Notes: a model not told the origin generated them from the sequence alone. Shown: positions 1,332 to 4,582, counted from the first letter of the stretch. The stretch: 30,517 nt of DNA from an uncultured Candidatus Saccharibacteria bacterium (GCA_964432465.1 CAYSNI010000069.1:1-30517), one strand, 5' to 3'. Program-made: numbers and translations.

Positions 1332-2840
1332 TCAACTGTGCTTTAATACCCTGCCACCAGCGGTACGGGTTAGTGAACTGTCGCTCACAGCTAATTTTCC
1401 GTTAACGAAAACATACTTGATCGCGACAATCCCGGACTTTAAAGAAAGTAGGCTTAGGTCGGCGTAATGTCCTTCTTTCACTAATCCGCGCTTCTTGATG
1501 CCAAATTTCTCCGCGGCCTCTGAGGTAATTTTTTCCACTGCCTGGGGTAGAGTTAAACCTTTTAGACGAAGCATCATTTCTAGAAACTTTGGAAAAGTTC
1601 GCGAAAAGCGCTCATGCTTGATCAACTTAGCGTCCGACGGCAAACTCGCGCCGTTGGAAGCAATGAGGACCTGATTCCGCTCCAAATTACGCACTAACAA
1701 ATCAAGATTGATATTCTTATAAAAAACTGTAGCTCGAAGATGGGTTAATTTCATTAACCGTACTAGGGCTTCACCAACGCTTACTTCCTGACTTTCCGCC
1801 ATCTGATGCAGTGTCTTACCGAGGAGGTACTCCCTGCCTTTCGCTTGCGCGATGAGGATGGCCTTGCCATCCATAGCCGATACTTCGCTCACAATCCGAT
1901 TGCGCGTGTCCGGATTTTCAAGATACGAGAGCATCACGTCTAAATTCCCCACTCTCGCCCAGCGCGGTAGCAAGGTATAAATTGGCACGATTGTTTCGGC
2001 AAAAGGATAACTATCGACGTGAATATCTAATTCACTGGCAACGCTATGAATCATTTCTAAGCCTTTCTGATATTCATTTTCAAATCCAAGCTGTGGCTTG
2101 AAATGGCTGATTAAAGTTTTCACACCGGTTTCTTCAGTTACTTTCACTGTCTCCGCCACCGCCGCCAGTAGCCCTTCTTCTTCATCGCGAAGATGCGTCG
2201 CGTACACGCCCTGATGCTCCGCCACAATTTTAACCAATTCTTTAATCTCCGAGTACGGAACCTGTCTCGCATGCGCGTATCCCAGTCCGGTGGAAAGACC
2301 GAAGGCCCCTTCTTTCATGGAATCAGAAATTAATTTTTGAAACGCGCGTAATTCGGAGACTGTCAGATCCCTCGCATCCTCACCCACCATCGCCCTACGA
2401 ATTGTGGAATGGCCAATCAGCGTCCCAAAATTAACGCCAAGTTTCCGCTGACTCAATATTTTCAAAAATTCCGCGATTGAATGCCAATCAACATTAATTT
2501 GGCTGGTATCTGTCCACTTGCGAATGGAGTCCAGGCTGCCATAGATAAGCGGTGCGAGTGATGAACCGCACTGCCCTCCCAAAATTGTGGTCACGCCCTG
2601 CAACAAGAAGTCCTGCTGTTCGGGGTTAGTAAAAAGCGAAAGGTGATGATCGGAGTCGGTATTCACATCAATAAATCCCGGTGAGAGATAAAGACCGAGG
2701 CCGTCAATGACAAGATCGGCTTTTTTCGTTGGGAATTTACCGATCGCGGAGATCTTGTCACCGGAAATCAAAACGTCGGCCAGATACGGCGATTTTTTTC
2801 CACTTCCGTCAACAATTTTGGCTCCTTTAATGAGAACCAT
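1332..2840 (-). CDS. N-acyl-D-amino-acid deacylase (D-aminoacylase)-like amidohydrolase
   Basis: IKGAKIVDGSG, PGFID, GVTT..GQCG, GHSTIR, GLSTGL.Y, THLRDE, SHFK; start moved to ATG 2840, which has TGGTATAAT 7 nt upstream. Confidence 0.85.
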   Translation of the reverse strand: MVLIKGAKIVDGSGKKSPYLADVLISGDKISAIGKFPTKKADLVIDGLGLYLSPGFIDVNTDSDHHLSLFTNPEQQDFLLQGVTTILGGQCGSSLAPLIYGSLDSIRKWTDTSQINVDWHSIAEFLKILSQRKLGVNFGTLIGHSTIRRAMVGEDARDLTVSELRAFQKLISDSMKEGAFGLSTGLGYAHARQVPYSEIKELVKIVAEHQGVYATHLRDEEEGLLAAVAETVKVTEETGVKTLISHFKPQLGFENEYQKGLEMIHSVASELDIHVDSYPFAETIVPIYTLLPRWARVGNLDVMLSYLENPDTRNRIVSEVSAMDGKAILIAQAKGREYLLGKTLHQMAESQEVSVGEALVRLMKLTHLRATVFYKNINLDLLVRNLERNQVLIASNGASLPSDAKLIKHERFSRTFPKFLEMMLRLKGLTLPQAVEKITSEAAEKFGIKKRGLVKEGHYADLSLLSLKSGIVAIKYVFVNGKLAVSDSSLTRTAGGRVLKHS

Positions 2841-2875
2841 TACCTCAATTATACCATTTTGAAATAAAAACTGGC

Positions 2876-3178
2876 TCAATGAGCCAGTTCTGCGAGCTTT
2901 CTGCCACAATCCGGGCAGTAAACTATTGGGATGTTGCTATTTTTCTCTCGACTCACAAATGCCGCCAAACCAATTAACATCCGATGGTAGCGCGGACCGC
3001 ACTGGGTACCGAAAACGCTGTTATCTTCCAACGCCTTCTGCGCGCGTTCAAAGATTACCTCCGGCTTCCGGGAAGCCGGAAGCTGCGCGCCGCATGCGTT
3101 GCAAAAGCGCGCGAGCGAGCCCATCTGATTGGGACAGTTCGGACACTGCACCTTAGGAACCTCATTTGGGTTTTTCAT
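2876..3178 (-). CDS. small zinc-ribbon protein
   Basis: CPNC, CNAC and CPDC pairs; SD GGAGG 5 nt before ATG. Confidence 0.7.
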   Translation of the reverse strand: MKNPNEVPKVQCPNCPNQMGSLARFCNACGAQLPASRKPEVIFERAQKALEDNSVFGTQCGPRYHRMLIGLAAFVSREKNSNIPIVYCPDCGRKLAELAH

Positions 3179-3494
3179 CTAGCCCTCCACAAAGACATTG
3201 CGGGTTGGTACAACGTGACCGCCGCCGACGATCACGTTTTAGAACCACCCCAAGTACCAGTCCTCCAATACGTGCGAGACAATAGCTACCGACAACGATA
3301 GCCAGAATAAGTAAGGGCGCGTGCGCAACTCGTCCGTCGGGGTGACCGAAAAATAACGTAAGATGATCAAGATCAATCGCAACAGCAGCCAAGCCACCAC
3401 AAACGCCAGCGCGAAATGCAAAAATGGTGCTCTCAGGGTGTACGACCAGTTGATTGTAGGCCAACGCCACTCGATGCCGGAGAGAGCGTAACAC
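3162..3494 (-). CDS. small membrane protein, frame A (GTG start, 110 aa; DLDH...GRVAH)
   Basis: Hydrophobic segments and a DLDH..R..H pattern like YdjM-type membrane metal-binding proteins; GGAG 6 nt upstream of GTG; competes with frame B. Confidence 0.45.
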   Translation of the reverse strand: MLRSLRHRVALAYNQLVVHPESTIFAFRAGVCGGLAAVAIDLDHLTLFFGHPDGRVAHAPLLILAIVVGSYCLARIGGLVLGVVLKRDRRRRSRCTNPQCLCGGLDEKPK

Positions 3495-3496
3495 AT
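3239..3496 (-). CDS. small membrane protein, frame B (85 aa; SHVLED)
   Basis: Two strong TM segments, SHVLED motif, GC-rich third positions; GGAG 4 nt upstream of ATG; competes with frame A. Confidence 0.45.
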   Translation of the reverse strand: MCYALSGIEWRWPTINWSYTLRAPFLHFALAFVVAWLLLRLILIILRYFSVTPTDELRTRPYLFWLSLSVAIVSHVLEDWYLGWF

Positions 3497-3535
3497 AGAA
3501 CTCCGTTATTAAAAATCTACAATGATACTGCCACC

Positions 3536-4582
3536 TTATAGATACTGGGTCAAGGCAAACAAAGCGAGGCCGAGCGCCACCGAAATAACGGAGATAATCC
3601 AGAAACGCATGGTCACTTTTGACTCCGGCCAACCGAGCGCTTCGAAGTGATGGTGAATCGGCGTGGAAATAAATATTTTTTTACCGCCACGGAATTTTTT
3701 ACTACCAAGTTGGACGATTACCGACAGCGATTCAATTACTAGTATCGGCGCGAAAAAAGGAAGAAGGAGGGTGGTGTTTGTCAACATGGAAATAACTCCC
3801 ATGGTAATCCCCAGTGACATTGAGCCGGTGTCACCCATAAAAAATCTGGCCGGGTAGATATTGAACCACAAAAAGGCCAGGGTCGCGCCGATAATCACCC
3901 CGCTAAGCGTCGCCAAATCATAGCGGCCCAGTACGAAAGCGACTACGGTCAAAGCAATGTAGGCGAAAAGCATCACCCCGCCAAGCAAACCGTCCAGACC
4001 ATCGGTTTCGTTCGCCGAAAACGCGCTCGCGACAATAATGAAAATAAAAAGTGGTATATACAGCCAGCCAATATTAATACTGCCGACGAACGGAACGGCC
4101 AGCACATCCCAATCTAAGCGATAATAAAACCATAAAGCGGCTACCACCGCGAACAACAGGTACATCACTAGTTTCTGGCTGACGCGCAGACCGCCACCTT
4201 TAGGACCGATACGAAGCACGCCCAAAAAGTCATCCGCAAGGCCAAGCATTGCCGCGATTAACATTGCCGCTAGTGGCAGATACGTCTCGGCCCGGTCAAA
4301 AAAATTAAGATAACTCCAGAAGCCATCAAATAGCCAGTGCAAAACCAGAAGCAAACAGGCGATACCGATAACCGTCCCCCAAATAATAATTCCACCCATT
4401 GTCGGCGTCCCCTCCTTTTTGGCATGCAGCTGGGAATAAACCGGGGCGGCTTCGCTGGTACGAATCTGTTTTCGGATTCCGAATTTATTTAAGAGCCTGC
4501 TGATAATAGGCGTAATCAGCAAGGCAACCAAAAAAGCGATAACCGAAAGTCCGATAATTCTAACTGCTTGAAGTACTACCAT
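3536..4582 (-). CDS. mraY: phospho-N-acetylmuramoyl-pentapeptide transferase
   Basis: KKEGTPTMGG, DDFLG, DGLDGL, FMGDTGS, PIHHHFE. Confidence 0.96.
   Translation of the reverse strand: MVVLQAVRIIGLSVIAFLVALLITPIISRLLNKFGIRKQIRTSEAAPVYSQLHAKKEGTPTMGGIIIWGTVIGIACLLLVLHWLFDGFWSYLNFFDRAETYLPLAAMLIAAMLGLADDFLGVLRIGPKGGGLRVSQKLVMYLLFAVVAALWFYYRLDWDVLAVPFVGSINIGWLYIPLFIFIIVASAFSANETDGLDGLLGGVMLFAYIALTVVAFVLGRYDLATLSGVIIGATLAFLWFNIYPARFFMGDTGSMSLGITMGVISMLTNTTLLLPFFAPILVIESLSVIVQLGSKKFRGGKKIFISTPIHHHFEALGWPESKVTMRFWIISVISVALGLALFALTQYL

Follow-up and report, generated by a model that had tools for sequence, protein, structure and literature searches.

A likely dual-coding gene pair for two small membrane proteins in an uncultured Candidatus Saccharibacteria bacterium

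Can one stretch of cellular DNA encode two different membrane proteins in two frames of the same strand, from start codons that lie only 2 nucleotides (nt) apart? This question is raised by a locus on the minus strand (positions 3496-3162) of a 30,517-nt stretch of DNA from an uncultured Candidatus Saccharibacteria bacterium (GCA_964432465.1, CAYSNI010000069.1:1-30517; the whole of this stretch is called the window here), which belongs to a 702-kb assembly in 72 contigs. An earlier note on this DNA had described a single GGAG ahead of the bases ATGTG, with two overlapping frames opening there, and had offered three readings, namely true dual coding, a frameshift after a GRVAH motif, or one real frame with a shadow. 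The layout is present as described: GGAG (3504-3501) is followed by TTCT and then by ATGTG (3496-3492), the ATG at 3496 opens a frame encoding 85 amino acids (aa), here called frame A, which ends in ...SHVLEDWYLGWF before a TAA (3241-3239), and the GTG at 3494 opens a frame of 110 aa, here called frame B, which contains IDLDH (D41-H44) and GRVAH (G54-H58) and ends at a TGA (3164-3162). The two frames overlap over 256 nt (3494-3239), where four stops interrupt the third frame.

YdjM (Pfam PF04307, formerly DUF457) is described as a 'membrane-bound metal-dependent hydrolase' and has, to our knowledge, no established function. Judging from comparative sequence evidence, the locus is likely to be a true dual-coding gene pair, whose products would be separate two-helix proteins that together form a YdjM-like metal site. 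The dual-coding option of the earlier note is supported by the openness of both frames, by indels that are all in-frame, by an alternating pattern of selection and by conserved starts.

Conservation, selection and start signals of the two frames

Relatives were collected by six-frame searches of 60 genomes, with A and B matches at the same place. Both frames are free of stops in 11 genomes beside that of the window, which gives 12 loci from five genera of one family (f1) at 40-76% protein identity; the relatives are labelled Parcubacteria, Patescibacteria or 'Saccharibacteria'. In the codon alignment of these loci all indels are in-frame, and both translations resemble conserved proteins. Six further, very distant overlapped loci lie on metagenome contigs (L054-L056), in a Candidatus Nealsonbacteria genome (L071), on a 6.7-kb contig binned as Archaeoglobus (L074) and on a 38-kb IMG/VR contig (L082), and each has an open A frame in the +1 phase of B, ending in ...SHVLEDY..GWF and a stop. 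The 12 f1 loci and these six make up the 18 overlapped loci whose DNA was read. Both frames are open in 18 of 18, and the third frame carries 1-11 stops per locus (1-9 per f1 genome). The earlier note had reasoned that homologs keeping one frame only would speak against dual coding; the opposite was seen, as both frames are open in every overlapped homolog. Residues invariant in the f1 alignment are P13, H27, L30, R60, W65, H75-V-L-E78-D79, G83, W84 and F85 in frame A, and F25, G34, D41, D43, H44, G50, R55, H58 and others in frame B.

For a comparison with chance, synonymous codons were redrawn with the protein of one frame held fixed, and the other frame was checked for stops. With A fixed, B was open in 2.5% of trials for the window, 1.7-19% for f1 and 3-19% for the six distant loci, and with B fixed, A was open in 0.45%, 0.45-4.1% and 0-5.8% of trials, respectively. 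Since the simulated openness is 0-19% per locus, whereas all 18 loci are open, the openness of both frames across these diverged relatives is more than chance, which is a mark of a same-strand dual-coding pair.

Selection was assessed by dN/dS (the ratio of nonsynonymous to synonymous divergence), using pooled Nei-Gojobori counts from six independent close pairs. The earlier note had proposed such a check for each frame, and it revealed purifying selection in both, alternating by segment. In the N segment, which holds the His motif of A, dN/dS is 0.35 for A and 1.07 for B; in the middle segment, with DxDH...GRxxH of B, the values are 0.56 and 0.33; and in the C segment, with SHVLEDY..GWF of A, they are 0.11 and 1.30, so that the protein of each frame is under purifying selection in its own motif segments. 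The third frame gives 1.0-4.5. Column variability in the alignment switches at the same points, from A to B and back to A. The motif segments of one frame overlie low-information hydrophobic helix segments of the other; B's D-L-D-H, for example, is written on L-I-L-I-I of A.

The start region is likewise conserved. A purine-rich Shine-Dalgarno (SD) site followed by NTGTG (ATGTG, TTGTG or GTGTG) is found in 10 of the 11 f1 loci with an assembled 5' end, L004 being excluded because of a gap. In this layout the start of A is followed 2 nt later by a GTG for B, and it recurs at L054 (TTGTGG) and at L071 and L074 (AATGTGG). The purine-rich sites in relatives (GAGGTG, AGGAG, GGGAGG, GAGGAGG) lie 4-7 nt ahead of the double start. 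L008, L055 and L082 have two separate starts instead, 4-19 nt apart, so that a putative start signal can be assigned to each frame either way, as a shared SD with NTGTG or as two nearby starts. Codon 2 of frame A is always TGN (Cys or Trp), which suggests that the bases are conserved and not the residue as such.

In every relative, frame B continues for 7-37 codons past the stop of A as a Lys/Arg-rich tail. In genus g1 this tail has a C-x4-C-x-C-like motif (RCTNPQCLCGG in the window, CDRPDCPTCGG in L005), and in one cluster of relatives (P0029) B is fused to a zinc-ribbon-like C-terminus. Taken together with a conserved zinc-ribbon gene next to the locus, the Cys motif and the fusion hint at a functional link of B with the zinc-ribbon protein.

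Single-chain relatives, predicted fold and likeness to YdjM

A search of 1.84 billion representative proteins with a profile built from single-chain relatives found 124 proteins: about 29 single chains (121-237 aa), three of A type, one of which is the window's own A, and about 90 short ones of B type (60-117 aa). Databases thus hold A or B almost at random, with ~90 B-type against 3 A-type clusters. Gene callers keep only one of two same-strand overlapping open reading frames (ORFs), and hence the DNA itself was examined where it could be obtained. Two clusters known as B only, P0031 and P0088, match two of the six distant overlapped loci, and the DNA there shows the hidden A frame. Among the other proteins, P0085 (329 aa) joins a B-type N-terminus to an unrelated C-terminal domain of ~240 aa. 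At L047:902-1369 (-), in genome G096, a single-chain gene lacks an in-frame C-terminal motif: it ends in ...NRRLHY and a stop, with ...SHPIEDYTIN in the +1 frame, and its intact relative is P0003 (158 aa); a true frameshift or a fault of the assembly would explain the loss.

Natural single-chain relatives, which join both products, lend indirect support to an association of A and B. In genome G019 and five f27 genomes, a single-frame ORF of 143-209 aa (187 aa in G019) holds in order the N-half of A with helix 1, a linker, the whole of B (its own N-part, helix 2, DxDH, G..RxxH and helix 3) and the C-half of A with helix 4, and the alternate frames of these ORFs are full of stops. The A profile (A2) matches both ends of the f27 ORFs (E 7e-11, 4e-7, 5e-6 and 8e-6), and the B profile matches their middle (E 2e-13 to 7e-6). 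G019 belongs to genus g5, together with four overlapped species, and has its gene at the same site after mraY; its position in the mraY tree and a one-codon deletion specific to the genus both put it inside this overlapped genus. Because G019 nests among overlapped species, the overlap must have given way to a single chain on at least one occasion, through two local duplications that are read in different frames. The separate B N-part of G019 has 53-56% protein identity and ~57% DNA identity to the overlapped B of L010, L012 and L013, its proportion of nonsynonymous differences (pN) is 0.28-0.30 against a saturated proportion of synonymous ones (pS) of ~0.8 (pN/pS ~0.35), and the A reading is broken by stops there; hence the part of B that looks weakly constrained in the overlap is selected as protein once it is freed.

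AlphaFold2 predictions on 29 single-chain relatives gave a confident model of a four-helix bundle, with helices at residues 9-42, 48-75, 84-107 and 111-137 (predicted local distance difference test, pLDDT, 93.5; predicted template modelling score, pTM, 0.86). The single-chain invariants are H19, G23, D67, D69, H84, H133 and D137, with H70 and R81 nearly invariant, and in the model all invariants except G23 sit near helix ends on one face. No solved structure in the PDB matches the model by fold or the profiles by sequence, neither the A/B family nor YdjM has a solved structure, and a search of the ESM Atlas gave only sub-0.9 leads (DUF6122, DUF5942, YdjM and TMEM267). Net charges summed over 17 loci are +34 for the N-tail, +52 for the C-tail and -23 for the motif loop of B, and -33 for the C-tail of A. 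By the positive-inside rule, B would be N-in/C-in and the motifs of A and B would face outward, so that the topologies of the two proteins, with basic B tails against an acidic B motif loop and A C-tail, appear complementary.

The proposed mechanism is as follows. Ribosomes loaded at one SD would start either at ATG 3496, producing A, or at GTG 3494, producing B, and the same DNA would give rise to two different two-helix membrane hairpins. Protein A would provide helix 1 with the conserved His and helix 4 with SHVLED...GWF, while protein B would provide helix 2, which ends in DxDH, the GRxxH loop, helix 3 and the basic tail. The hairpins would then interleave into the same four-helix bundle as the single chain of the relatives forms, which would bring His, Asp, Asp, His, His, His and Glu/Asp together at one membrane face, which the charge bias suggests to be the outer one. 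The pair would probably be a small membrane-embedded metal site that faces outward and is YdjM-like and likely hydrolytic, in other words a small metal-dependent hydrolase of the membrane.

The earlier note had seen YdjM-type motifs split between the frames, which stands for the motifs themselves (His and SHxxED in A, DxDH and RxxH in B) but not for membership of the Pfam YdjM family. Of 151 sampled Patescibacteria genomes, 44 have canonical YdjM, which is a single chain in one frame (165-215 aa) with TH, PDxD, HRxxxHS and SHxxxD in order; none was found in the window's genome. The same motif order on four hydrophobic helices, here xH, xDxDH, GRxxH and SHxxED, is obtained only with the two frames read together or in the single-chain relatives. 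In contrast to YdjM, the A/B family ends in ...EDYxxGWF and a stop, without the GVPWLWP extension. Frame B and the single-chain forms of G019 and G046 have no Pfam YdjM match, and a Pfam and NCBIfam search of both frames and the single-chain relatives gave nothing above threshold. Profile alignments to YdjM (hhalign) pair the right motifs each time, with the single-chain set as well as with A and with B. The A/B family therefore seems YdjM-like in design, at the motif level only. A broad B profile matches ORFs of 406-422 aa (L053, G533:C28:7775-8329, and L052, G587:C4:176628-176786); the 406-aa ORF of G533, which matches this profile with E 2.4e-5, also contains a genuine YdjM domain (E 2e-14) and may connect the B hairpin with canonical YdjM. 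A paper matched by the term 'DUF457' was discarded, as it concerned DUF4579.

Competing explanations and the origin of the overlap

Several points weigh against a dual-coding pair that forms a YdjM-like site. Both proteins are predicted from the sequence of uncultured organisms, from which we infer the translation of both frames, the heterodimer, metal binding, topology and substrate, and the A+B heterodimer is proposed from folded single chains only. The evidence from DNA covers 18 overlapped loci, against ~90 short B-type clusters. In the N and C segments of the overlapped genomes dN/dS of B is ~1.1-1.3, which indicates that the amino-acid sequence of B is weakly constrained there inside the overlap. 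As to YdjM, frame A scores 13.7 bits against the Pfam model (E 0.043), below the 29-bit gathering threshold; YdjM is the commonest sub-threshold Pfam match of the single-chain relatives, at E <= 1 in 9 of 29 with a best E of 9.8e-4; and hhalign of the single-chain set to Patescibacteria YdjM gives a probability of 23.6% (E 8.6e-4), with 3.8% for B alone and 5.6% for A alone. Finally, both frames resemble parts of single-frame proteins, a likeness for which any account of the birth of the overlap would have to provide.

The alternative that one frame is the real gene and the other a shadow, held open by codon or residue composition, is unlikely. Hydrophobic, NTN-rich coding does tend to have no stops in some alternate frames, yet neither frame is forced open by the other in the simulations (0-19% per locus). 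Frame B has dN/dS >= 1 in two of three segments and frame A an odd composition (6.1% Trp, 30% F+Y+C+W+S), but the invariant polar motifs of each frame fall where the other frame varies, both readings recur as separate, selected segments of the G019 and f27 single-frame ORFs, and A-type and B-type proteins were each found as families by profile search. The shadow option of the earlier note is thus at odds with the invariant motifs that each frame has of its own and with the stretch of purifying selection that each has of its own.

The alternating selection would also fit a spliced A-B-A protein, and for this reason a frameshift reading, which extends that of the earlier note, was tested, in which a single protein would begin at the start of A, shift -1 into B before DxDH and shift +1 back after GRVAH. 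We hold this to be very unlikely. A slippery heptamer is absent from the window and five other f1 genomes, although G GGT TTT or a T-run occupies the first switch point in six of the 12 f1 genomes, and hence no slippery site is conserved. The strongest purifying selection does follow the A-B-A path, but both frames are open far beyond any switch point, over their whole length; in a model that preserves the path only, recoding leaves all the unneeded segments free of stops in 0.7-17% of sequences per genome, whereas no actual locus has a stop in them. Some database ORFs (P0074, P0077 and P0093) read B and then the C-part of A in one frame, but the homologs are not colinear with a spliced product, as the single-frame forms (143-209 aa, against 85 shared codons) hold helices 1-4 in full. 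The double start and the basic B tail past the A stop are both conserved, and in a spliced chain, DxDH would be expected to face the other side of the membrane from the His of helix 1, in contrast to the model. The frameshift after GRVAH suggested by the earlier note therefore lacks a conserved slippery site, and the single-chain relatives do not represent a spliced path. Judged by the marks of a programmed frameshift gene of the dnaX, prfB or IS3 kind, namely a conserved slippery site with closure of the zero frame shortly behind it and a shifted product colinear with single-frame homologs, the locus does not qualify. The runs at the first switch point lie at alignment codons 46-48 of L005-L009 and L013 (G GGT TTT or T6-T8; the window's equivalent is ~3355-3365), and in these six genomes they could give occasional -1 slippage into B; they are not conserved.

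A decaying pseudogene of, or an assembly error in, a single-frame YdjM-like gene is hardly credible despite the T5 runs in the window's stretch, the 72-contig metagenome assembly and the assembly gap at L004, as the two-frame layout is found in 18 independent assemblies of varied sources, at 40-76% protein identity and with no stop in either frame. At L004 (G003:C6) a run of N stands ~60 nt upstream of the A/B core, bordered left and right by the same ~55 nt; this is an artefact of the scaffold gap, through which the assembly contains the beginning of the A/B locus twice.

If the locus is indeed a dual-coding pair, the overlapped layout might be ancestral to the whole family, with single chains arising repeatedly by staggered tandem duplications, a proposal that we put forward tentatively and regard as rather doubtful. 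Under it, A would have been overprinted on a YdjM-like core hairpin B, the two would then have become an obligate two-chain four-helix protein, forms with B and the C-part of A would be intermediates, and G019 would be an example of unfolding. Proteins P0039 (87 aa) and P0041 (98 aa) have B followed by an in-frame C-part of A, without the N-part of A, and are possible half-unfolded intermediates. Frame A is rich in W (6.1%), in F+Y+C+W+S (29.6%, compared with 19.1% in B and 15.9% in the background) and in L (19%), a make-up that NTN-rich helix codons would be expected to yield when read in +1, and Trp still amounts to 5-6% in those parts of the single-chain forms that correspond to helices 1 and 4; together these features hint at an overprinting of A on B, with overlapped forms as the ancestors of the single-chain ones. 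We know of no ordinary path from a single chain to an overlap, whereas the opposite step can be explained by duplication. However, the YdjM-like motif order would need explaining if the overlap came first, and two further analyses seem to give no polarity: in a B-core tree of 122 sequences (~65 columns, arbitrary root) the single-chain forms are scattered, and basal under midpoint rooting, and in a ghost-frame test, in which the alternate frames of six single-chain genes were scored with the A and B profiles and compared with codon-reshuffled versions, G019 gave p 0.12 and G073 an isolated p 0.003 in an unexpected frame.

Precedents, significance and surroundings of the locus

The closest precedent in print, in kind, would be M.EcoHK31I, a heterodimeric C5 DNA methyltransferase of E. 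coli HK31, in which the gene of the alpha chain also contains, in a different frame, that of the beta chain, both chains being needed for activity (PMC2836561). One enzyme fold comes as two chains there, as is proposed for A and B, and single-chain relatives exist in both cases. The small beta chain of M.EcoHK31I, however, carries one motif and is nested in a large soluble alpha chain, whereas the A and B products are similar in size, overlap almost fully and would be interleaving membrane hairpins (helices 1+4 and 2+3), with starts 2 nt apart behind one SD, all known here from sequence alone. M.EcoHK31I furthermore sits in a restriction-modification module, and the A/B pair in chromosomes of ultra-small bacteria.

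A second comparison is offered by the embedded two-component spanins Rz/Rz1 of phage lambda, two membrane-associated proteins from two same-strand frames that act in one complex. In relatives of Rz/Rz1 the pair may be embedded or overlapped, but the two genes can also lie apart, or a single-chain form can take their place. Rz1, however, is a short lipoprotein whose gene lies within that of Rz and starts deep inside it, and Rz and Rz1 do not make up one fold between them, as A and B would. Nor is the A/B pair part of a lysis cassette, its place in the window's family being behind mraY.

Outside viruses, long and conserved overlaps on the same strand are regarded as great rarities, and gene callers do not allow them. 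With 18 diverged loci, and single-chain versions as a built-in control, the comparative support for cellular dual coding is unusually strong here. The arrangement suggests a design rule, in which the motif segments of one frame are laid over the low-information transmembrane helices of the other. G019 provides a directional example of an overlap resolved by duplication, and if the overlap is ancestral, the family would document a route from an overlapping pair to a larger ordinary gene. The locus raises the questions of how one SD could feed two starts 2 nt apart in different frames, how a four-helix fold could be built from interleaved hairpins, and how overlapping genes are born and resolved, and it flags a small, unannotated protein of Patescibacteria that may be associated with the envelope.

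The features of the locus are collected in Table 1. No Rfam family, promoter or terminator matched beyond chance in window positions 2800-3800, and an RNA element, promoter or terminator at the A/B locus was ruled out, there being no Rfam match and no consensus above chance. As nothing of this kind stands out in that interval, the pair is probably co-transcribed with mraY. The mraY synteny is kept in the f1 relatives, and the zinc-ribbon neighbour in genus g1 and in L011. In the flanks of the six distant loci only these two neighbours were looked for, and both are absent, which makes a link of the A/B pair to the envelope weak.

Table 1. Coordinates of the A/B locus and its two neighbours in the window; helices and their pairing are predicted.
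Feature	Position	Strand	Basis
GGAG, Shine-Dalgarno-like, common to both starts	3501..3504	-	Sequence; comparable site in relatives
Double start ATGTG (ATG 3496 for frame A, GTG 3494 for frame B)	3492..3496	-	Sequence and relatives
Frame A coding sequence, 85 aa, predicted two-helix hairpin equivalent to helices 1+4 of single-chain relatives	3239..3496	-	
Frame B coding sequence, 110 aa, predicted two-helix hairpin equivalent to helices 2+3 of single-chain relatives, plus basic tail	3162..3494	-	
Frame A helix 1, LHFAL, invariant His27 (3416-3418)	3356..3427	-	Aligns to model helix 9-42, H19
Frame B helix 2, ending D41-L-D43-H44 (3363-3374), D41/D43/H44 invariant	3363..3431	-	Aligns to model helix 48-75, D67/D69/H70
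Frame B loop motif G-R55-V-A-H58, R55/H58 invariant	3321..3335	-	R81/H84 in the single-chain alignment
Frame B helix 3 (A59-L85), hydrophobic, weakly conserved sequence	3240..3320	-	Aligns to model helix 84-107
Frame A helix 4, S74-H75-V-L-E78-D79 (3260-3277), C-terminal GWF	3242..3319	-	H133/D137 in the single-chain alignment
Frame B basic, Cys-containing tail past the frame A stop	3165..3239	-	
mraY, upstream neighbour, 39 nt before the double start	3536..4582	-	Pfam Glycos_transf_4 E 5e-31 and MraY signature
Double zinc-ribbon gene, downstream neighbour, start overlapping the end of B by 17 nt	2876..3178	-	Pfam DZR E 1.6e-6

The family is patchy in Patescibacteria, being present in two of the 32 families of the window's order and in four of 401 genomes of a phylum-wide sample. 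A viral scan with the B alignment gave no match. On the contig binned as Archaeoglobus (L074:1310-1806, +) the two-frame gene again starts with AATGTGG, and another copy lies on the 'viral' IMG/VR contig (L082:4535-4783, +); mis-binning, mobility or a truly wide host range may account for the hosts of these two loci.

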